Below, one piece after another: positions 1,438 to 64,000 of a DNA stretch of 64,000 bases. The position numbers were made by a program, and so were the translations under genes. How positions within the stretch are numbered: position 1 is the stretch's first letter; the number at the start of each line of letters is the position of its first letter. The notes beneath the pieces were generated by a model that was given only the letters and a program-made list of their open reading frames with translations, had not been told where the DNA came from and searched no databases. Source of the DNA: Candidatus Calidihabitans tengchongensis (GTDB lineage: Bacteria; Sysuimicrobiota; Sysuimicrobiia; Sysuimicrobiales; Kaftiobacteriaceae); the NCBI GenBank assembly GCA_031459615.1, contig JAVKIE010000001.1, forward strand, positions 66,300 through 130,299. The letters are read 5' to 3'.

Positions 1438-2193
1438 GTGACTGTCGGGACCGGCCGGATTCGCCGCGCGCTCGTCATCATTCCTGTCTACAACGAAGAG
1501 GCCACCCTGGACCGCGTGCTGGCCGAGGTGCGCCGCCACGCGCCGGACTGCGACGTGGTGGTGGTGGACGACGGGTCCACCGACCGCTCCCCGGACATCC
1601 TGCGGCGCCATCCGGTTGAGGTGATCCGCCACGAGGTCAACCGCGGCTACGGAGCCTCGCTGATCTCGGGATTCCGCCGCGCCGTCGAGGGAGGCTACGA
1701 GGCCGCGGTGACCCTGGACTGCGACGAGCAGCACGAGCCCCGGCAGATCCCCGCATTCCTGGCGGCCCTCGAGCGCGCCGACATCGTCTCGGGCAGCCGG
1801 TACCTGGACCCGACCCTGCCGGGCGACCCTCCGCCCCCCGACCGCTACCGCATCAACCGGGAGTTCGTGGCGCTGCTGCGGGCGATCACCGGCTATCCGC
1901 TGACCGACGCCTGGTGCGGCTTCAAGGCGTACCGGGGGGAGGCCCTGCGGCTGCTGGAGCTGACCGAGCCCAGCTACGGGATGCCCCTGCAGGTGTGGGT
2001 GCAGGCCGCCGCCCGGGGCCTGCGGGTGGTGGAGCTGCCGGTGGCCCGCATCTACAAGAACCCCCGCCGGACGTTCTGGGGCGGGCTGGATGATCCCGAC
2101 ACCCGTCGCGCGTATTACCTGTCGGTGCTGGAGGCGGAGGTGGCCCGCTGGCTGCCCGACCGCCTCCCGCTGGTGCGGGAGAGGACGCCGTGA
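1438..2193 (+). CDS. family 2 glycosyltransferase, polyprenol-phosphate (DPM1-like) sugar transferase
   Basis: The motif LVIIPVYNEE...VVVVDDGSTD...LDCDEQHEP is the GT-A fold DxD signature of dolichol/polyprenol-phosphate mannosyl/glucosyltransferases. GTG start. Confidence 0.75.
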   Translation: MTVGTGRIRRALVIIPVYNEEATLDRVLAEVRRHAPDCDVVVVDDGSTDRSPDILRRHPVEVIRHEVNRGYGASLISGFRRAVEGGYEAAVTLDCDEQHEPRQIPAFLAALERADIVSGSRYLDPTLPGDPPPPDRYRINREFVALLRAITGYPLTDAWCGFKAYRGEALRLLELTEPSYGMPLQVWVQAAARGLRVVELPVARIYKNPRRTFWGGLDDPDTRRAYYLSVLEAEVARWLPDRLPLVRERTP

Positions 2194-2867
2194 GGATCCT
2201 GGCCATCGGGGCGCATCCCGACGACGTGGAGATCGGCATGGGCGGGGCCGTTCTGATCCTGCGGGCGCAGGGCCACGAGGTGACCGTGTGCGACCTCACC
2301 GACGGCGAGCCCACGCCCGTGGGCACCCGCGAACGGCGCCTGGCCGAAGCGGCCGCGGCGGCCGGACTGCTGGGAGTCTCCCGCATCACTCTCGACCTGC
2401 CCAACCGGGAGCTGGTGGACTCGATCCCCCACCGGCGCGCCGTCGCCGAGGTGATCCGCCGGGTGCGGCCCGACATCCTGTTCGTGCCCTACTGGGTCGA
2501 CGCCCACCCCGACCATGTGGCCGCCTGCGCGCTGGCCGAGGCCGCGCGGTTCTATGCCAAGCTCACCCACACCACCATTCCCGGCGACCCGGTCTACCCG
2601 CCGCGGGTCATCCACTTCGTGACCAGCCACTACCGGCTGGCGCTGCAGCCGACGTTCATCCTGGACATCTCCCCGGTCATCGACCGCAAGCTCGCCGCCG
2701 TGCGGGCCTACGCCTCCCAGTTCGGTCCCGAGCGGGGAGCGGAGGATTTTGTGGACCGCCTGCGGGACCTCAACCGTTATTATGGCCACCTGATCGGGTG
2801 CGCATACGGTGAGCCGTTCATCTGCCGGGAACCGCTGGGCCTGCGGGGCCTGGACCAGCTGGCCTGA
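2190..2867 (+). CDS. PIG-L/LmbE-family N-acetylglucosaminyl deacetylase
   Basis: MRILAIGAHPDDVEIGMGGAVL...HPDH is the zinc-binding signature of LmbE/PIG-L (MshB/BshB-type) deacetylases. GTGA overlap with the upstream glycosyltransferase. Confidence 0.8.
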   Translation: MRILAIGAHPDDVEIGMGGAVLILRAQGHEVTVCDLTDGEPTPVGTRERRLAEAAAAAGLLGVSRITLDLPNRELVDSIPHRRAVAEVIRRVRPDILFVPYWVDAHPDHVAACALAEAARFYAKLTHTTIPGDPVYPPRVIHFVTSHYRLALQPTFILDISPVIDRKLAAVRAYASQFGPERGAEDFVDRLRDLNRYYGHLIGCAYGEPFICREPLGLRGLDQLA

Positions 2868-2870
2868 GGG

Positions 2871-4451
2871 ATGGTCCGGGACGGCGCAGGGCCCCTTCCC
2901 GAGCACCCCGCGGAGGTGGACATCCCCCGCCGGTCCGGGGAGGCGGTGTGCGTTCCCCCGGCCGCGCGGCTGGTGGCCCTGGCGCGCGAGGTGGGCGCGG
3001 ATCTGGACCGCGCCGACGTGGTCCTGGGCGGGCTCCCCCTTCGGCGGCTGCGGGCGCAGGCGCGGGAGGAGATCCTGGCGGCGGCCGCCGCCTACACCCG
3101 CGGGCTGGGCCTGGACGCGGACATCCCGCCCGGCCGGGCGCCCCTGGTCGTCACCGGTCACCAGCCCTTCCTGTTCCACCCCGGCGTGTGGGTCAAATAC
3201 CTCCTGGCCGCCCGGCTGCAGGACCGCGGGGCCCTGGCGTTGGGCATCCCGGTGGACAGCGATGAAGCCGGCGAGGTCGGGGCCGACGCGCCGGCGTCCG
3301 GGCCGGCCGGCATGGTCCTGGCGCGGGAGGTGCTGGTGGCCGCGGAGCCGGAGGTGCCCTACGAGGCGCTGCCGGCCCCCTCGCCGGACCAGTGGGCGGC
3401 GTTCCTCGACCGCCTCCAGGCGCACCTGGAGGCGGTGCCCCTGGAGAGGGCGCAGGCCGCCTTGCGCCGATTCCGCGAGCTGACCGTGGATCTGCGCGCG
3501 GGCGACCTGGGCGCGTTCTTCACCGCGGCCCGCCACCGCTACGAAGGCCTGCGCTACCTGGAGGTCCCGGTCTCCATCCTCAGCCGCACCGACGCCTTCC
3601 GGCGGTACGCGCTTCACCTGCTGGGCGACGCGGACCGGTTTGCCGCGGTGTACAACCGCCTGCTGCAGGCCTACCGCGAGCGCCACGGCGTCCGCACGCG
3701 AGCCCAGCCGTTTCCGGACCTGGAGCGCGACGATCGGGGGGTGGAAGCGCCGTTCTGGCTGCTGCGCGCGGGCCGCCGCCTGCGGGTGTTCGTGCGGCGG
3801 CGGCGGGACCGCCTGGTCCTGGCGGCGGACGCGGACGTGGCCGAGCTGTCCCCCGGGGCGGGCCCGCAGGCCCTGGAGGGACTGGAGCTGCGTCCCCGGG
3901 CGCTGACCCTGACCCTGTTCACGCGGCTGGTGGTGGCCGATCTGTTCCTCCACGGGGTGGGCGGAGGGCGGTACGACCGGGTGACGGACGCCGTGATCGC
4001 CGACTACCTGGGCCTGGCACCTCCCGCCTACGCGGTGGCCACCGCCACCCTGCACCTGCCCCTGGCGGCCGACGACCTGCGCGCCCGGCGCCGGGAACTG
4101 CGCCAGCGCCTGATGCGCCTGCAGCACAACCCCGACCGGGTCCTGGACGATCCGACGCCCGAGCAGCGGGCGTTGATCGAGGAGAAGTGGTCGCTGGTGG
4201 CGTCGCTGTCCTCGGCGGCGCTCACCCGGCGTCAGCGACGCCAGATCACCCACCGGATCCGGGAGATCAATGCCGAGCTGTCCCGCGCTTTGGGCGAGCA
4301 GGTGGAGCGCCTGAGCCGCCAGCTGCGGGACCTGGACCGGCCCGCCACCGAGGCCGCGCTGGCGGCGGCGACCCACCGGGGCTATCCGTACTGCTACTTC
4401 CCGGTGGACGACGTCGCCGCCCTGGTGGACGGCCTGCTGTCCCGGCCGTAG
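2871..4451 (+). CDS. BshC-like (DUF2317) putative cysteine-adding ligase with C-terminal coiled coil
   Basis: 526 aa. The N-terminal region PLVVTGHQPFLFHPGVWVKYL resembles the conserved G-Q-Q/H-Q motif region of the BshC family as remembered. The C-terminal 120 aa (LRARRRELRQRLMRL...EQVERLSRQLRDL) is predicted coiled coil, like the BshC dimerisation domain. Assignment is from memory of the family, not a search. Confidence 0.35.
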   Translation: MVRDGAGPLPEHPAEVDIPRRSGEAVCVPPAARLVALAREVGADLDRADVVLGGLPLRRLRAQAREEILAAAAAYTRGLGLDADIPPGRAPLVVTGHQPFLFHPGVWVKYLLAARLQDRGALALGIPVDSDEAGEVGADAPASGPAGMVLAREVLVAAEPEVPYEALPAPSPDQWAAFLDRLQAHLEAVPLERAQAALRRFRELTVDLRAGDLGAFFTAARHRYEGLRYLEVPVSILSRTDAFRRYALHLLGDADRFAAVYNRLLQAYRERHGVRTRAQPFPDLERDDRGVEAPFWLLRAGRRLRVFVRRRRDRLVLAADADVAELSPGAGPQALEGLELRPRALTLTLFTRLVVADLFLHGVGGGRYDRVTDAVIADYLGLAPPAYAVATATLHLPLAADDLRARRRELRQRLMRLQHNPDRVLDDPTPEQRALIEEKWSLVASLSSAALTRRQRRQITHRIREINAELSRALGEQVERLSRQLRDLDRPATEAALAAATHRGYPYCYFPVDDVAALVDGLLSRP

Positions 4452-4518
4452 CGTGGGTCTCCCGGATGCCGCCGACCACGGAACCCACCCCCGATCCGCC
4501 AACAGTGGATCATCAACA

Positions 4519-4640
4519 GGGGTCTGCCCTCCGACAGTGACGGTCACCAGGACGGGAGCCTGACCCCGACAGTCTGACCCGAAAATTTTAGGGGTCTGAC
4601 CCCAAAATTTCGCAGTGTGGCGTCTGACCCCAGAATTGTG
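4519..4640. repeat. cluster of about 5 direct copies of (G)TCTGACCC(C), three followed by AAAATTT
   Basis: Copies: ggggtctgccct (4519), cctgacccc (4559), tctgacccgaaaatttt (4573), ggggtctgaccccaaaattt (4589), tctgaccccagaatt (4622). GGGGTCnGACCCC is itself palindromic. The AT-rich tails are atypical for this genome. Confidence 0.6.
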
Positions 4641-4656
4641 CGCGTGGGGCGACCGG

Positions 4657-5109
4657 TCAGCGTGTGGGCTCCTGCGCGTTCCCGGATCTGCGCCGCATCG
4701 ACCGGCGGACGTACGCCGCTGCCAGCGCCGTCCCCGCCAGCAGGGCCGCTGCAGGCGTCAGCCACACCACCCACAGGAGGCCCCGCCGCGGAGGCTCCAG
4801 CAGGATCCACGGGCCGTAGCGGTCCACGAAGTAGGCCACGATCTGCTCCTCACTCTCTCCCCGGGCCAGCCTGTCCCGGATCAGGGCCCGCATCTGGGCG
4901 GCCAGCTCGGACGGCGAGTCGGCCACGCTCTCGTTCTGGCACACCGGGCACCGCAGCCGCGCCGCGATCGCCTGCGCCCGCGCGTCCAGATCCTGGGCTC
5001 GCGCCATCCCGGAGACGACGCTGCCCAGGAGGGCGGCGATCGCGAGCGTCGTCTTCGCCCGAGCCGCCAGACCCCCGCTCCCGCGGCCTGCGATGGTCAT
5101 GCCTGACAC
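4657..5109 (-). CDS. ccmH: cytochrome c-type biogenesis protein CcmH
   Basis: Signal-peptide-like N-terminus followed by the LRCPVCQNESV (LRCxxC) CcmH motif. Last gene of the ccm cluster. Confidence 0.7.
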   Translation of the reverse strand: MSGMTIAGRGSGGLAARAKTTLAIAALLGSVVSGMARAQDLDARAQAIAARLRCPVCQNESVADSPSELAAQMRALIRDRLARGESEEQIVAYFVDRYGPWILLEPPRRGLLWVVWLTPAAALLAGTALAAAYVRRSMRRRSGNAQEPTR

Positions 5110-5137
5110 CTTCCTCCACCACCCCCCGCCCGCACCA

Positions 5138-5683
5138 TCACCGATCGCCGGGCCGGCCGGTGCCCGGGGGGCGGTGGTCGGAGGCGGGGATCAGCGGCTC
5201 GATGCGCGGGGCCAGCAGGTCCTCGGTCACCGCCCCCGCGTGCTTGAAGACGATCCGTCCCTGCCGGTCGATCACGTAGGTTTCGGGCACGCCGACCACG
5301 CCGAAGTCGATGGCGATGGCCCCCGAGCGGTCCATCCCCACGGGAAACGTCTGCCCGAAGCGGCGCAGGAAGGCCCGGGCTGCGGCCTCGGTGTCCTGGA
5401 TGTTGATGCCCACGACCACCACGCCCCGGTCCCGATAGCGCTCCCACACGCGCTGCAGGTGCGGGGCTTCGTCGTAGCAGGCGGGGTAGCACCAGGATGC
5501 CCAGAAGTTGACCACCACCACCCGCCCGCGCAGGTTCTGGGAGCGCAGCAGGCCTCCGTCGAACAGCGGCAGGGTGAATGCCGGGGCCGGACGCCCGACC
5601 AGGGGGGACGGCAGCCGCCGGGGATCGCGGCGCAGCCCCGCCCCCAGCACCGCCAGCAGGCCCACCACGACGGCCAGCGCCAC
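5138..5683 (-). CDS. ccmG: thiol:disulfide oxidoreductase CcmG/DsbE-like (thioredoxin fold), atypical CxxxC motif
   Basis: The C-terminal 181 aa of the long ORF 5138..7681 have a TM anchor then a thioredoxin fold (VVVVNFWASWCYPACYDEAPHL...GVPETYVIDRQGRI). Start at GTG 5681-5683 is a guess and could be further upstream. The redox motif reads C-Y-P-A-C (CxxxC), not the canonical CxxC. Confidence 0.65.
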   Translation of the reverse strand: MALAVVVGLLAVLGAGLRRDPRRLPSPLVGRPAPAFTLPLFDGGLLRSQNLRGRVVVVNFWASWCYPACYDEAPHLQRVWERYRDRGVVVVGINIQDTEAAARAFLRRFGQTFPVGMDRSGAIAIDFGVVGVPETYVIDRQGRIVFKHAGAVTEDLLAPRIEPLIPASDHRPPGTGRPGDR

Positions 5684-5748
5684 CCACGGCCACCGGATCC
5701 GCCGGGTCGGGGGCGACCCCGCCGGCCGGAGGTGTTCGTCGGGGCGCC

Positions 5749-7698
5749 CTACGGGCGGCGCGGCGGCCACAGGGCCAGTCCTCCCCCGACGATCATGATG
5801 GCCCCGCCGGCCCAGATCCACGACACCAGCGGGCTGATCACCACCCGCAGGACCACCGTCTGCGCGCCCGGGTCGAATCCCAGCAGTACCACGTACAGGT
5901 CCTCCCGCCAGGTGGACCGCACCCCGGGCGTCGGGACGGGGGTCCGGGCGTGGCGGTAGAAGTTCTGGGACGGCCGCAGGACCGCCGCCGGCGCCTGATC
6001 GCGGGAGGCGGCCAGGGCCGTGCCGCCGTCGGCCACCGACACCGGGGCCCACACCACCAGGCGGTCCGGATACGTTCCCGCCCGCAGCTCGTCCACCCGC
6101 AGGGCGTACGGCCCCACGCGGATCACCTCGCCCACCCGCAGCGCGCGGTGCACCTCCAGGCGAGCAGCCTGGGAGCCTACAATGCCCGCCACCACCACCG
6201 CCATCCCCAGATGGACCACGTATCCGGCGTAGCGGTGCCGGTGGCGGAGGACCAGCTCGGCCATCGCCGCCGGAACCGGCCGTCCGCCCCGGTGCAGGGC
6301 CCGCACGCCGCGGGCCAGCTCGTCCAGCTGGGCCAGGGCCACGAACGCCACCGCCCCCACCGCCACGACGGCGACGGGCGCCCGCAACCCGGCGGCCGCC
6401 GCGGCGGAAGCGGCGACGGCGGCGAGGCCGCCGGTTCGCGCCAGGCGGCGCAGGTCTGCGGGGGACGACCGTCCCCAGCGCAGGACGGTGCCGGCGCCCA
6501 TCAGGGCCAGCAGCACCAGCCCCAGGGGGGTGATCGCGCGATTGAAAAACGGCGGCCCCACGGTGACCTTCTGCCCGGTGGCCACGTCCACCGCCAGCGG
6601 GAACACCGTGCCCACAAACACCGTCGCGGCCATCGCCAGCAGGAGCGCGTTGTTGAAGACCATCAGGGCGTCGCGGGATGCCACCGACGCCACGCTCCCG
6701 GCGTCCCGCACGTCCGGCACCCGCCAGGCCAGCGCGGCGAGCGTCCCCACGGTGACGGCCGCCAGGCCGGCGAGCAGCGCGGGCCCGATCGCCGACTGGG
6801 TGAAGGCGTGCACCGAGGCCAGCACGCCGCTGCGGGTGACGAACGTGCCGAACAGCGTCAGCCAGAACGTCGCCGCAGCCAGGACCACCGTCCAGGCCCG
6901 CAGCACTCCCCGCCGGACCTGGGCCATCGCCGAGTGCACCAGCGCGGTGGCCGTGAGCCACGGCAGCAGGGCGGCGTTCTCCACCGGATCCCACGCCCAG
7001 TAGCCTCCCCATCCCAGGACGTCGTAGGACCACCGGGCCCCCAGGACCAGCCCGGCGGTCAGCGCCGTCCACGCGCCCAGCGTCCAGGGCCGGCTGACGA
7101 CCACCCAGTCTTCGGCATCCCGGCCCGCCAGCAGGGAGCCGAGGGCAAACGCATAGGGTACCGCCATCCCCACAAACCCCAGGTAGAGCAGGGGAGGGTG
7201 CAGGATCATCAGCGGGTGGTTCTGCAGCAGGGGGTTCAGTCCGGTGCCGTCGGCCGGTGGCGTCGGCACCCGCGCAAAGGGATCGGCCGGCCCCACCAGC
7301 AGGAGCAGGAAGAACGCGCACAGGCCCAGCAGCACGCCCACCGTCCCGCGCCACAGGCGGGGCGCTGGCGCGCGGGTGCGGACGGCCACTCCTGCGGTGA
7401 GGGCGGCCAGCAGCCAGGTCCACAGCAGCAGGGACCCTTCCAGCGCCCCCCACAGCGCCGCCACCCGGAACGCCAGCGGGGTGGTGCGGTTGGTGGTGGC
7501 GGCCACGTAGCGGATGCTGAAGTCCCCGCCGATCAGGGCCCACTCCAGGAGCGCCACCGCACCGGTGACCGCCACCGCCATGCCCGCCGCCAGCGGGACG
7601 ACCCGCCGCCCGCCCCGCGGCCGGGCGCACGCCGCCAGGCCGGCCACCGCACAGGCCGCCGCGGCCACCAGGCTGATCCATCCTCCCAGCGCGATCAC
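5749..7698 (-). CDS. ccmF: cytochrome c heme lyase subunit CcmF
   Basis: 649-aa polytopic membrane protein with the WGGYWAWDPVEN WWD-domain signature of CcmF/NrfE. Its ATG overlaps the ccmE stop (ATGA). Confidence 0.85.
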   Translation of the reverse strand: MIALGGWISLVAAAACAVAGLAACARPRGGRRVVPLAAGMAVAVTGAVALLEWALIGGDFSIRYVAATTNRTTPLAFRVAALWGALEGSLLLWTWLLAALTAGVAVRTRAPAPRLWRGTVGVLLGLCAFFLLLLVGPADPFARVPTPPADGTGLNPLLQNHPLMILHPPLLYLGFVGMAVPYAFALGSLLAGRDAEDWVVVSRPWTLGAWTALTAGLVLGARWSYDVLGWGGYWAWDPVENAALLPWLTATALVHSAMAQVRRGVLRAWTVVLAAATFWLTLFGTFVTRSGVLASVHAFTQSAIGPALLAGLAAVTVGTLAALAWRVPDVRDAGSVASVASRDALMVFNNALLLAMAATVFVGTVFPLAVDVATGQKVTVGPPFFNRAITPLGLVLLALMGAGTVLRWGRSSPADLRRLARTGGLAAVAASAAAAAGLRAPVAVVAVGAVAFVALAQLDELARGVRALHRGGRPVPAAMAELVLRHRHRYAGYVVHLGMAVVVAGIVGSQAARLEVHRALRVGEVIRVGPYALRVDELRAGTYPDRLVVWAPVSVADGGTALAASRDQAPAAVLRPSQNFYRHARTPVPTPGVRSTWREDLYVVLLGFDPGAQTVVLRVVISPLVSWIWAGGAIMIVGGGLALWPPRRP

Positions 7699-8856: not shown

Positions 8857-9512
8857 ACCTCGTCCATCACCGCCTCAAACAGGATCGGACAGGCCAGCAC
8901 GAACACCGCGACGCTGCCGGCCAGCACCCCCGGCCACACGCCTGCCGGCGCGCCCGCCAGGACGGCCTCGGTGAGCCGGATGCAGGCCAGCACGGGCGGC
9001 AGGGCCAGGGGCAGCATCAGCAGGGGCGCCAGCAGCTCCCGCCCCCGCACGTGCAGCAGCAGTCCGGCCACCAGCGTTCCCAGGGCCGCCAGGGCGGCCA
9101 CGCCGGCCCCGCCCACCGCCGCCAGCTGCGGCAGGCGCGCGGCCACGGGGAGTCCGAACAGGAATGCAGCCAGGATCAGCAGGACGGCCACCACACCCCC
9201 CAGGAGGACCGCGAGCGCGGCGGCTTTGCCCCAGTACAGGTGCTCGCGCCGGCCCGGGTACAGCAGCAGCGCCTCCAGCGCCTGCTGGTCAGCCTCGGCC
9301 TGGGTGATCCGCGGGATGCCCACCGCCGCCGCGCACGCTGCCGACACCCACACCACGGCGGCGGCGCGGGCGGGTTCGGGCCCCAGCGCCACGCCCAGGA
9401 CCAGCACCAGCAGCAGGCCCGCCAGGAGCATGGTGAGGGCGACGGCTCGTCCTCGCCACTCCGCGCGCAGGTCCTTGCGGGCCACCGCCGCCGCCCGCGT
9501 CCACCCGCTCAC
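8853..9512 (-). CDS. ccmB: heme exporter ABC permease CcmB
   Basis: 219-aa six-TM protein (ARKDLRAEWR...). GTG start at 9510-9512 overlaps the ccmA stop (GTGA). The ORF track has a spurious 5' extension to 10004. Confidence 0.8.
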   Translation of the reverse strand: MSGWTRAAAVARKDLRAEWRGRAVALTMLLAGLLLVLVLGVALGPEPARAAAVVWVSAACAAAVGIPRITQAEADQQALEALLLYPGRREHLYWGKAAALAVLLGGVVAVLLILAAFLFGLPVAARLPQLAAVGGAGVAALAALGTLVAGLLLHVRGRELLAPLLMLPLALPPVLACIRLTEAVLAGAPAGVWPGVLAGSVAVFVLACPILFEAVMDEV

Positions 9513-10201
9513 GGGCGGCCTCCCTGCGCGGCGAACGCCGGCGCACCGGGGGCCAGGGATCGGAGCGCGGCGGGCTCCCCGGCCTGCAGCACCAGTTCCG
9601 CATCCGCCAGCGCCCGGGCGCGGTCGCGGTCGTGGGTGGCGATCACGGCACTGCCTCCCCGGGCGACGACCTCCGCCACCATGGCGGCGACCAGCGCGGC
9701 CCCCTCGGGATCCAGCCCGGCGTAGGGCTCGTCCAGCAGCAGCAGCCGCGGCTGGCCCAACCAGACCCGCGCCAGCGCCAGCCGGCGCTTCATGCCCTGG
9801 CTGAAGGTCCGGACGAGCCGGTCGGCGGCGGCACCCAGACCCACCCGGCGCAGCCAGGCGTCCACGTCCGTCTGCGGGCGCCCCCACAGGGCGGCTGCGA
9901 ACTCCAGATTCTCGCGGGCCGTGAGCAGCTCGTAACCGCCGAAGGCGGCGCCCACCAGCCCCACCATCGGGCGCACCCGGTCCGCCTGCCTGACCAGGTC
10001 GCATCCGAAGACGGTGCCCCCGCCCGCCGTGGGTCGCAGGGCGGTGGCCAGCAGGCGCAGCAGCGTCGTCTTGCCCGACCCGTTGGGACCGGAGACCAGC
10101 AGCACCCGGCCGGCAGGCACGGTCAGGGTGATGCGGCGCACGGCCCAGACCGGGCCGAACCGCCGTCCCAGGTTCACCGCGCGCACGGCCGGGACGTCCA
10201 C
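9509..10201 (-). CDS. ccmA: heme exporter ABC ATPase CcmA
   Basis: Walker A GPNGSGKTTLLR, signature FSQGMKRRLALA and Walker B LLLLDEP. Start is GTG 10199-10201. The ORF track extends spuriously to 11008 on the opposite strand of the cyt c gene. Confidence 0.8.
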   Translation of the reverse strand: MDVPAVRAVNLGRRFGPVWAVRRITLTVPAGRVLLVSGPNGSGKTTLLRLLATALRPTAGGGTVFGCDLVRQADRVRPMVGLVGAAFGGYELLTARENLEFAAALWGRPQTDVDAWLRRVGLGAAADRLVRTFSQGMKRRLALARVWLGQPRLLLLDEPYAGLDPEGAALVAAMVAEVVARGGSAVIATHDRDRARALADAELVLQAGEPAALRSLAPGAPAFAAQGGRP

Positions 10202-10366
10202 ACCCCTGCCCCCTCGTCCTCCTGTCTGTGTGCGGGAGGACACTCGCCGTGTCCAGTTCGCGCCCGGCGGCGCCGGCGCCTGCCGCTCCACCGCGCGACG
10301 GCGGAAGGCCACTTCGCCACGCCCCGGCAGGGACAGCGCGCGCGGTCGGAGAATTGTCCCGGGCGT

Positions 10367-11269
10367 ATGGGGGGTCGGATCGTCGCCGTCGCCATCGTCG
10401 TGGCCGGCGCTCTTTTTTTGGCCGGCTGCCAGCCCGCGGTGGACATCTCCCGGGCGGGCGTGGAGGCGGCGCGGGAGCTGCCCCCGGCGCCGCCGGATCG
10501 ACCCCTGCTGCCCGTGGACGCCCGGGGCCAGCCCATCCGTCCCTCGGCCGAGGTGGGCGCCCAGGTGTTCAGCCGGGCGCGGTGCGACGTCTGCCACGGC
10601 CCTCAGGGACGCGGCGACGGGCCCGCGGCGGCGGGTCTGCGGGCGGAGCAGAAGACGCTGCTGCACGACCTGGCCCGCCTGGTGGGGATCCGCCTGCAGC
10701 CCGAGCGGCTGCCCAGCCGCCCGGCCAACTTCCACAACGTGGTGGCGATGCGCCTGAACAGCCCGTTCAGCATGTACGAGACCGTCACCCGGGGGCGCCC
10801 GCACACGGCGATGCCGGCGTTCGGCCCGCGCCCGGCCTACGGCGCCACGTCCTTCGGCGTCCGGCTGACCGACGCGGAGCGCTGGCACGTGATCTTCTTC
10901 GAGTGGGCGTTCGCCACCACGCCCGAGGAGGTGGCGCGGGGACGCGAGCTGTACGAGACGCGGGCCATCGAGGTGGGCGGGCGCGCCCTGACCTGCGCGT
11001 CCTGCCACGGGGTGCGGGGGGACGGCCGGGGGCCGGAGGGCGTGCGGCTGAGCCAGCGGCTGTGGACGTGGGCCCGGGGACAGGGCCCGGGGATCTTCAC
11101 CGACTTCAACCTGATGGCCCAGCGCAAGCCCAGCGACCTGTTCCAGGCGGTCGTGGACGGACGGGGAGAGATGCCCGCCTACCGGGGGAAGCTCACCGAG
11201 GACGAGATCTGGGCCCTCGTGAACTACATCTATACGTTCGTCTACGACTATCCGGGGCTGCGCCGGTAG
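10367..11269 (+). CDS. diheme c-type cytochrome, lipoprotein
   Basis: Lipobox signal MGGRIVAVAIVVAGALFLAGC. Two CxxCH heme-binding sites (CDVCH, CASCH). ATG at 10367 sits in-frame inside the larger ORF 9632..11269. Confidence 0.75.
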   Translation: MGGRIVAVAIVVAGALFLAGCQPAVDISRAGVEAARELPPAPPDRPLLPVDARGQPIRPSAEVGAQVFSRARCDVCHGPQGRGDGPAAAGLRAEQKTLLHDLARLVGIRLQPERLPSRPANFHNVVAMRLNSPFSMYETVTRGRPHTAMPAFGPRPAYGATSFGVRLTDAERWHVIFFEWAFATTPEEVARGRELYETRAIEVGGRALTCASCHGVRGDGRGPEGVRLSQRLWTWARGQGPGIFTDFNLMAQRKPSDLFQAVVDGRGEMPAYRGKLTEDEIWALVNYIYTFVYDYPGLRR

Positions 11270-33951: not shown

Positions 33952-34026
33952 GGGCCTGTAGCTCAGCGGGAGAGCGCCCGCTTGGCGTGCGGGAGGTCGC
34001 GGGTTCAATTCCCGCCAGGTCCACCA
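33952..34026 (+). tRNA. tRNA-Ala (anticodon GGC), CCA-encoded
   Basis: Hand-folded cloverleaf. Acceptor stem GGGCCTG/CAGGTCC with the G3:U70 alanine identity pair. Anticodon loop TTGGCGT. T-loop GGGTTCAATTCCC. 3' ACCA. Confidence 0.85.
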
Positions 34027-34054
34027 TCGGGGCTGTCAACCGGGGTGGTACCAC

Positions 34055-34095
34055 GGAGGCCGCCTTCGTCCCCGAGACGGAGGCGGGTTTTTTGT
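34055..34095 (+). terminator. rho-independent terminator after tRNA-Ala
   Basis: GC-rich hairpin (ggaggccgcc...ggaggcgg) followed by GGGTTTTTTGTT. Confidence 0.6.
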
Positions 34096-34138
34096 TGCGG
34101 CCGCCGGAGGCGAGCCGGCGGGCCGGGGGAGGCGGGAA

Positions 34139-63228: not shown

Positions 63229-63364
63229 GCGGCTTCCGGACGGCGTGCGCGGCCCGGCCGCGCTTCTCTGGGACTGGCACCAAACTTGCTCACATCTTCT
63301 CCGGAGGCATCCGGCGCCTGCCCTGCGCGGCGGCGACGGCGGGACCGGCGGGACGGTAGCCCCT

Positions 63365-63392
63365 TGCAATTTGGGGGTGAGTTTGTTAGAAT
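63365..63392 (+). promoter_or_regulatory. sigma-A-type promoter TTGCAA-16-TAGAAT (TG-extended)
   Basis: TTGCAA at 63365-63370 and TGTTAGAAT at 63384-63392. It drives a leader of about 210 nt before the sigma factor gene. Confidence 0.55.
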
Positions 63393-63401
63393 CCGGCCAG
63401 T

Positions 63402-63500
63402 CCTCGCGATAAAGGCAAACCCAGGGTGACCTGGGGGCGCAAAGCTACGGGACCTGCCGGTGGCGATGGCCGGAAGGTCAGCCGGGCTGCCGAACGAGGC
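63402..63500 (+). promoter_or_regulatory. candidate c-di-GMP-I (GEMM) riboswitch aptamer
   Basis: AAAGGCAAACC, then the CCCAGG-GTGA-CCTGGG hairpin (GNRA tetraloop), then GGCGCAAAGCTACGGG. These reproduce the two hallmark GEMM blocks (GGCAAACC ... GACGCAAAGCYACGGG) with a P2 GNRA hairpin between them. A P1-like pairing CCTCG/CGAGG closes the element. Downstream CCCTCCT could sequester the GGAGGAGG RBS. Confidence 0.5.
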
Positions 63501-63602
63501 GATTGTTTTTCCCTCCTGCGGCAGTCCTCCGGTCCCGTCTCAGCGCTGCGCCTCCGATTCCGCGGGCATCGGCGATGTCCGGCGGGTGACAGGAGGAGGC
63601 TG

Positions 63603-64000
63603 CTATGGGACGCAGGGGCACGCTGCATGCGGCGCGGGAGACCCCGCCCGACGACTTCCTGGCCTGGTTCCGCGCGTATCGTTCGTCACGATCCCCCGAC
63701 CTGCACGAGAAACTGACCACCCACTTCATGCCGCTGGTCCACCAGGTGGCCCGCCGGTACGCCCGCTCGGGCATCCCCCTGGACGACCTGCATCAGATCG
63801 GGTACATCGGCCTGATGAACGCGGTCACCAACTTCGACCCCGACCGGCGGGTCAAGTTCGAGACCTACGCCCGCCACCTGATCGCCGGCGAGATCCGCCA
63901 CTACCTGCGCGACCAGGGGACGACGGTCCGCCGGCCGCGCTGGCTGTACGAGATGGACCACCGGGTCAACCGGGCGGTGACCAGCCTCACCCAGCGCATC
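63603..64000 (+). CDS. group-3 sigma-70 family sigma factor (SigB/F/G/FliA-like), 5' partial in window
   Basis: Region 2.1-2.4: DDLHQIGYIGLMNAVTNFDPDRRVKFETYARHLIAGEIRHYLRD. ATG 63603 after GGAGGAGG. The gene continues past the window end. Confidence 0.8.

Follow-up and report, generated by a model that had tools for sequence, protein, structure and literature searches.

Evidence for a class I c-di-GMP riboswitch in the leader of a group-3-type sigma factor gene of Candidatus Calidihabitans tengchongensis

Near the 3' end of a 64-kb stretch of Candidatus Calidihabitans tengchongensis DNA (64,000 nucleotides, hereafter the window), the leader of a sigma factor gene contains an RNA element that is, with very little doubt, a class I riboswitch for cyclic di-guanosine monophosphate (c-di-GMP), of the GEMM-I type with a GYRA tetraloop. 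Judging from the conserved binding pocket, its ligand is highly likely to be c-di-GMP itself. The account that we favour as a whole, namely a canonical class I c-di-GMP riboswitch that works as an OFF switch in the leader of the sigma gene, appears likely. The RNA family is a known and ordinary one, and the target gene is fairly unusual.

We scanned the whole window with cmscan at the Rfam gathering thresholds and obtained two matches, one to a tRNA and one to the c-di-GMP-I clan. The latter match, to RF03167 'c-di-GMP-I-GGC', spans 63405-63495 on the + strand and is full length (model positions 1-80 of 80), with 64.0 bits against a gathering score of 59 and an E-value of 8e-13; at 63405-63495 another, overlapping family from clan CL00126 likewise exceeded its own gathering score. 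An initial annotation, made from the letters alone, had proposed a GEMM aptamer in this leader and had named a covariance-model score below the gathering threshold as the outcome that would speak against it. The score lies above that threshold, the motifs on which the proposal rested (GGCAAACC, a GNRA-capped hairpin and GGCGCAAAGCUACGGG) are all present where it placed them, and all ligand-contacting positions are canonical. The parts of the aptamer are as follows.

63405-63495, + strand: extent of the Rfam match to the c-di-GMP-I aptamer (RF03167, 64.0 bits).
63402-63408, + strand: 5' strand of helix P1, CCUCGCG (element A), whose partner lies at 63491-63499.
63414-63421, + strand: motif GGCAAACC, read from the sequence.
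63414, + strand: equivalent of G20, in contact with one of the two guanines of c-di-GMP; G in all 21 sequences.
63415-63440, + strand: first hairpin by alignment, with a 2-bp and a 6-bp stem and an AAA internal loop, including the equivalent of C44 (63438).
63420-63435, + strand: stem-loop capped by the GNRA loop GUGA (63426-63429), read from the sequence.
63436-63451, + strand: motif GGCGCAAAGCUACGGG, read from the sequence.
63441, + strand: equivalent of A47, whose base intercalates between those of the ligand; A throughout the 21 sequences and G in the GGC-variant consensus.
63443-63488, + strand: second hairpin by alignment, with an AG bulge; G63481 is the equivalent of G83 and the partner of C63438.
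63490, + strand: equivalent of C92, whose Watson-Crick partner is the second guanine of c-di-GMP; C in each of the 21 sequences.
63491-63499, + strand: 3' strand of P1, CGaaCGAGG, by folding the switching strand that is shared with an alternative hairpin.

Conservation was assessed by aligning the window with 20 orthologues (21 sequences). Since RNAalifold drew P1 wrongly, the Rfam-type GEMM fold was named explicitly and tested; 96.3% of its cells were paired and 11 of its pairs showed compensatory change, values that none of 500 shuffles reached, and sliding the partners by 1-3 columns left only 26-49% paired. P1, which is longer here than in the Rfam model, was paired in 92.5% of cells with compensatory change in three of its seven pairs, the helices of the first hairpin (helices 2 and 3) in 100% with compensatory change in three pairs, and the helix of the second hairpin (helix 5) in 95.9% with compensatory change in five. 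The tertiary pair corresponding to C44:G83 (C63438:G63481) is C:G in every one of the 21 sequences, the AAA linker between the hairpins is invariant, and the tetraloop reads GUGA, GCGA, GCAA or GUAA (GYRA) across the orthologues. This conservation and covariation rule out a chance match or a relic. The ligand contacts of G20, A47 and C92 and a universal C44:G83 inter-helix pair are described for the Vc2 riboswitch (PMC4744006, PMC5888326), and the original GEMM description has an AAA linker and a GYRA/GNRA loop, as here. On the strength of the invariant G20, A47, C92, C44:G83 and AAA linker, we filed the element as canonical c-di-GMP-I.

The orthologues come from a locus search that was seeded by a trimmed alignment of the sigma factor fragment and yielded 80 loci (numbered from L001). 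For sigma proteins of about 60% identity or more (L001-L019 and L041), the aptamer lies immediately upstream of the gene, in all 20 cases, and its fold, pocket nucleotides and position are kept at 21 of 21 orthologous loci. NCBI labels these loci mostly as Armatimonadota, 'Bacillati bacterium ANGP1' or plain 'bacterium', and one orthologue (L018) is Candidatus Thermofontivivens primus, of the phylum Candidatus Sysuimicrobiota, formerly CSP1-3. Neither Rfam nor a clade-specific covariance model found the aptamer beside the distant sigma homologues of Tepidifontimicrobium, Abditibacterium, Atribacterota and Actinomycetota, and over 795 kb of sigma-homologue loci the clade-specific model found it in this clade only. 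At the edge of one contig, two c-di-GMP-I aptamers stand in tandem about 40 nt apart on the minus strand (L019:79-179 and 219-314), and the gene that would be under their control falls outside the contig. Two metagenome-assembled genomes, labelled Abditibacterium (L026:11244-11367) and Armatimonadota (L027:10903-11026), have cobalamin riboswitch matches (38-41 bits) some 5 kb 3' of the sigma homologue, unrelated to the c-di-GMP finding.

The gene behind the leader starts with an ATG at 63605 and is cut by the window end after 132 codons. The initial annotation had called it a group-3 sigma factor, FliA/SigF-like. A full-length orthologue, L001, with 261 amino acids and 93% identity over the fragment, carries sigma-70 regions 2, 3 and 4, which agrees with the group assignment. 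Among the families it scores best with SigB/SigF/SigG (TIGR02980), where its 217.6 bits fall slightly short of the cut-off of 234.35, and much more weakly with FliA/WhiG (TIGR02479, 123.5 bits, below a cut-off of 189.6). By these family scores, the product is predicted to be of the group-3 type and to stand closest to SigB/F/G rather than to FliA. No anti-sigma or STAS gene was seen adjoining the sigma gene in the orthologous loci that were inspected.

Between the aptamer and the sigma gene, four elements recur in all orthologues, which we call A (the 5' strand of P1), B, C and D (the Shine-Dalgarno sequence). In the window, this expression platform consists of the following parts.

63486-63499, + strand: element B, the 3' end of the aptamer with the 3' strand of P1, GCUGCCGAAcGAGG, recurrent in the orthologues.
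63502-63510, + strand: U-rich tract AUUGUUUUU, recognized by composition, directly after P1 and also the loop of the alternative hairpin.
63511-63517, + strand: pyrimidine stretch CCCUCCU, read from the sequence.
63512-63525, + strand: element C, CCUCCUGCGGCAGU, complementary to 63486-63499, with the consensus CCCUCCUxCGGCRGC.
63484-63527, + strand: alternative B:C hairpin (anti-aptamer or anti-sequestor), predicted by folding.
63522-63530, + strand: anti-Shine-Dalgarno segment C...UCCUCC, which shares nucleotides with the 3' end of element C and pairs with the Shine-Dalgarno bases when the minimum-energy fold is computed with the aptamer enforced.
63525-63530, + strand: second copy of UCCUCC, read from the sequence.
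63591-63599, + strand: Shine-Dalgarno sequence AGGAGGAGG, 5 nt before the ATG.
63605, + strand: ATG of the sigma gene, read from the sequence.
63605-64000, + strand: 5' part of the sigma factor gene (132 codons), with sigma-70 region 2 in the open reading frame.

The B:C hairpin of the window has a folding energy of -24.3 kcal/mol (z -4.5), and none of 200 shuffles was as stable. Over 20 orthologues, 90% of its cells are paired, a share that falls to 29-55% when the register is slid, and three of its pairs are compensatory. Since the hairpin uses the base of the second hairpin, C92 and P1, it excludes the aptamer. The nucleotides of element C that pair with B and with the Shine-Dalgarno sequence overlap in 20 of the 21 orthologues. 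When the aptamer is enforced, the partner of the Shine-Dalgarno sequence is the CCUCC element in most orthologues and, in the remaining ones, a second pyrimidine run slightly further 3' in the leader. Across the orthologue set, the mean probability that the Shine-Dalgarno sequence is unpaired was 0.079 with the aptamer enforced, whereas shuffled platforms gave 0.207 and unconstrained folds 0.262 (paired Wilcoxon tests, p ~1e-6 and 1e-5, respectively). The pairing of CCCTCCT with the ribosome-binding site, which the initial annotation had raised as a possibility, thus turns out to be part of a conserved scheme of alternative pairings. In orthologues with a short platform, a U run comes directly after the C:D hairpin and at the same time forms the spacer to the ATG (for example GGGAGGAUG-UUUGUUAUG in L013 and GGAGGGGGC-UUUUCUUUAUG in L015), and this hairpin with its U run looks like a terminator too. 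The window and L001 have an insert of about 65 nt in the leader, without a U run before the ATG, which makes control of translation the likelier output here. That insert is common to these two only (L003, L006 and L007 carry a different insert at the same place), and in the window three copies of CCUCC lie inside it (63512-16, 63526-30 and 63551-55).

From these pairings we propose the following scheme. When c-di-GMP is bound, the P1 helix (63402-63408 with 63491-63499) would be locked and the pyrimidine element at 63512-63530 released, which would then pair with the Shine-Dalgarno sequence at 63591-63599 and block translation of the sigma factor. In the absence of ligand, the 3' strand of P1 would capture the pyrimidine element in the hairpin at 63484-63527, so that the aptamer would be broken and the ribosome-binding site left free. 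The net effect would be that c-di-GMP turns the sigma factor OFF, and termination of transcription at the U-rich tract after P1, likewise dependent on the ligand, may act towards the same end. The OFF logic is the direction towards which we lean on comparative grounds.

Several observations weigh against this account. The RF01051 bit scores that we quote are those of orthologues, and the window's own quoted score is to RF03167. The covariation of the B:C hairpin is modest, which we attribute to one of its strands being fixed by the aptamer. For the window taken alone, the energy model gave the same Shine-Dalgarno accessibility in the two states (0.23 vs 0.22) and no difference from shuffled platforms either (0.27); we ascribe this to the pyrimidine-rich leader with 73% GC, in which nearly any arrangement buries the ribosome-binding site. 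The duplex z-scores of the window against shuffled C regions were likewise weak (-1.2 and -1.6), leaving the comparative set as the informative one. In the unconstrained fold, the freed 5' strand of P1 (CCUC) pairs with the Shine-Dalgarno sequence, which, if real, would blunt the switch. Given this pairing and the null energy test, the direction of the switch is a comparative inference. Lastly, the PilB-like ATPases encoded next door in relatives carry MshEN domains, through which c-di-GMP activates pili in other bacteria, and an ON wiring would be more obviously coherent with this.

Two other ligand classes have to be weighed, and we consider both of them very improbable. The GGC-variant class (RF03167; we take its name to refer to positions 20, 47 and 92) may sense a ligand other than c-di-GMP, and it is the top Rfam model for the window (64.0 bits against a gathering score of 59) as well as for several orthologues. 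Its consensus has ACGCGAAgC, with G at the A47 position, where the window and all 20 orthologues have GCGCAAAGC, with A at this discriminating position (CGCAAAGC); we therefore rejected membership. The orthologous aptamers score 56.6-63.4 bits with RF01051 (gathering score 35) or 59.1-67.5 bits with RF03167 (gathering score 59), that is, 21-28 bits above the threshold of the former and 0-8 bits above that of the latter, and the best-scoring model alternates between RF01051 and RF03167 among close, near-identical orthologues. Because of this alternation, we read the RF03167 scores as cross-hits of a canonical sequence. Equally slight is the probability that the aptamer senses 3',3'-cyclic GMP-AMP (cGAMP) and not c-di-GMP, as GEMM-Ib members do on the same scaffold. 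Some G20 aptamers have been reported to be promiscuous; cGAMP-selective members are said to carry A20 (in work of 2015 attributed to Kellenberger and to Nelson), all 21 sequences have G at position 20, and the neighbouring genes are of a c-di-GMP type (MshEN). Membership of the c-AMP-GMP (GEMM-Ib) riboswitches was rejected on the identity of position 20.

As for the output of the switch, an ON logic, in which the ligand exposes the ribosome-binding site and the ligand-free RNA hides it through the 5' strand of P1 (GUCCUC), seems improbable. It agrees with the unconstrained minimum-energy fold, where 63395-63407 pair with the Shine-Dalgarno region, and with the MshEN-type PilB genes downstream, given that pili are activated by c-di-GMP through MshEN ATPases and, in Clostridioides difficile, through the pilA1 class II riboswitch. 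However, pairing between the 5' strand and the Shine-Dalgarno sequence spans about 190 nt in a register that is not conserved, whereas with P1 locked the conserved CCUCC element has the Shine-Dalgarno sequence as its sole conserved partner, and folds with the aptamer enforced bury this sequence in 21 of 21 orthologues. Moreover, the sequestor hairpin of the short platforms, with its U run, can form only when the aptamer strand is unavailable. Rather less improbable, though still a minority view and not exclusive of the favoured scheme, is an OFF switch whose main output is termination, with ligand-locked P1 and AUUGUUUUU forming an intrinsic terminator and Shine-Dalgarno sequestration as a back-up. 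Over the 21 leaders, U makes up 53% of the 12 nt after P1 but 18% of the leader as a whole; the window has only five tracts with 7 or more T in 9 positions, and at least two of the others follow classical terminator hairpins; and in L004, L005 and L008 a P1 extension, CGAGGAG, runs directly into UUUUGUUU. On the other hand, the terminator stem would enclose a multi-helix 'loop' of about 90 nt, which is atypical of intrinsic terminators, in the window P1 and the U run are set apart by 2-3 unpaired nucleotides, and the U-rich tract is absent from L041, L015 and L017 and may simply be the loop of the B:C hairpin. The terminator scan made no call at P1 and the U tract or elsewhere in the window leader, nor in the leader of a pilT gene of L018 described below, with a loop limit of 3-8 nt that excludes the hairpins seen by folding.

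Elsewhere in the window, a tRNA-Ala (GGC) at 33952-34026 is followed by a textbook terminator at 34040-34098 (GCCGCCUUCGUC...GACGGAGGCGG, then GUUUUUUGUUG), with its U-rich tract at 34087. All five such tracts lie on the + strand of the window, which has 73% GC.

Upstream of the aptamer, the sigma-A-type promoter that the initial annotation described is present with the following elements.

63364-63369, + strand: -35-like hexamer TTGCAA from the promoter scan; cTTGCAA is kept in L001-L008.
63384-63392, + strand: extended -10 element TGtTAGAAT (TGTTAGAAT) from the promoter scan.

The spacing given there, 16 nt, was a miscount; the hexamers are 17 nt apart, and 14 nt separate TTGCAA from TGTTAGAAT. 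Over 1 kb the scan found this single promoter-like site, where 0.1 were expected in shuffles, and most orthologues have a TAGAAT-like -10 hexamer shortly 5' of P1 at a similar distance. Because of this conserved hexamer we place the transcript start just 5' of the aptamer, presumably near 63399, from which the leader would measure about 205 nt, close to the 210 nt estimated initially. The leader is thus inferred to be transcribed from its own sigma-A-type promoter.

Within the window, the genes 5' of the sigma gene are alaS, ruvX, mltG, yqeG and a TPR-SLT lytic transglycosylase gene. The region beyond the window end was read from relatives, the closest metagenomic contig being compared by gene list. 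There, a conserved order runs from the sigma gene through a small MerR-type gene, a gene for a 125-amino-acid protein and a Roadblock/MglB-like gene to two genes for PilB-like ATPases with MshEN domains, and in L018 pilC follows too. The 125-amino-acid protein (L001:7136-7513 and orthologues) is 70-86% identical between relatives and stands between the MerR-like and Roadblock/MglB-like genes at most loci; it had no Pfam or NCBIfam match, and no MglA-like GTPase or anti-sigma gene was seen adjoining it. The PilB-like ATPases are encoded at L001:8105-10606 and at L018:7390-9132 and 9160-10908, and that of L001 has two MshEN motifs and an N-terminal TPR region. Their MshEN motif is nearly intact (xLGxxLLxxGxxTxxQLxxALxxQ), with H, S or F instead of the expected first Arg, and the strict c-di-GMP motif (RLGxx...) was unmatched in these proteins. 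A scan of the open reading frames of the window for GGDEF, EAL and HD-GYP motifs gave no convincing match, 64 kb being no guide to the genome.

A second c-di-GMP-I aptamer (RF03167, 64 bits) lies at L018:2247-2362 on the + strand, in Candidatus Thermofontivivens primus, ahead of two pilT-like ATPase genes (2492-3550 and 3551-4636). In this pilT leader a clear hairpin is followed by AUUUUCUUUUU, and the 5' arm of the hairpin can pair with the 3' strand of the aptamer, which by this model looks like the OFF layout again. In L002 and L016, where pilT has the same position, no aptamer reached the Rfam gathering score. In the Armatimonadota loci L023, L025 and L029 (~1700-6720), a sigma factor that is 44-46% identical stands right after pilB-pilT-pilC, without a riboswitch, and the association of pilus genes with this sigma family seems to predate the riboswitch. 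As the family lies near type IV pilus genes in relatives, the physiological output may be the repression, at high c-di-GMP, of a pilus or motility-linked regulon. That the sigma factor controls a pilus regulon is suggested by gene neighbourhood, and we advance it tentatively. With still less confidence we consider a reading in which c-di-GMP is perceived wholly at the RNA level and gates a dedicated sigma factor of the pilus cluster through the riboswitches of the sigma gene and of pilT. This would amount to a cascade from messenger to riboswitch to sigma factor for surface motility, in which the terminator of P1 and the U tract together with sequestration might form a 'double lock'.

Among known systems, Vc2 of Vibrio cholerae (RF01051) shares the two-hairpin aptamer closed by P1, the G20/A47/C92 pocket, the C44:G83 pair, the AAA linker, the GNRA loop and the position in a 5' untranslated region. 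The element described here differs in its host, an uncultivated high-GC lineage related to Candidatus Sysuimicrobiota (CSP1-3), in its downstream sigma gene, and in its three-element platform (P1 strand, CCUCC element and Shine-Dalgarno sequence) with a U-rich linker. The nearest precedent for the wiring is Cd1 (Cdi-1-3) of C. difficile, a class I OFF switch on the flgB operon, which contains sigD (PMC6366702). In both systems, here by prediction, a class I aptamer acts as an OFF switch through which the level of an alternative sigma factor falls and a motility regulon with it. In Cd1, sigD lies deep in a 23-kb flagellar operon under classical terminator control, whereas here the sigma gene is the first after the aptamer, mainly translational control is predicted and the neighbourhood is that of a type IV pilus. 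Cdi-2-4 of C. difficile, upstream of pilA1, is likewise a leader RNA that links c-di-GMP to type IV pilus genes, but it has a class II fold and ON logic and acts directly on a pilin gene, not on a sigma factor. In Streptomyces, RsiG-WhiG governs the activity of a group-3 sigma factor through c-di-GMP, which glues the anti-sigma factor to the sigma factor; that control is protein-based, whereas here the synthesis of a sigma factor would be under RNA-based control. Pilus and flagellar genes are typical targets of the GEMM class, which is well known, and the original GEMM list of recurrent gene associations includes pilus genes and no sigma factor.

Two genomic surveys of CSP1-3 make no mention of c-di-GMP, riboswitches, pili or sigma factors, and the finding places c-di-GMP signalling, with a specific target, in a widespread uncultivated lineage of soils and hot springs. 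The 21 natural variants of the platform, with spacers from 25-nt to 170-nt, constitute a comparative series for the alternation between terminator and Shine-Dalgarno sequestration. A riboswitch directly before a sigma gene would be a compact route from a small-molecule signal to the response of a whole regulon.

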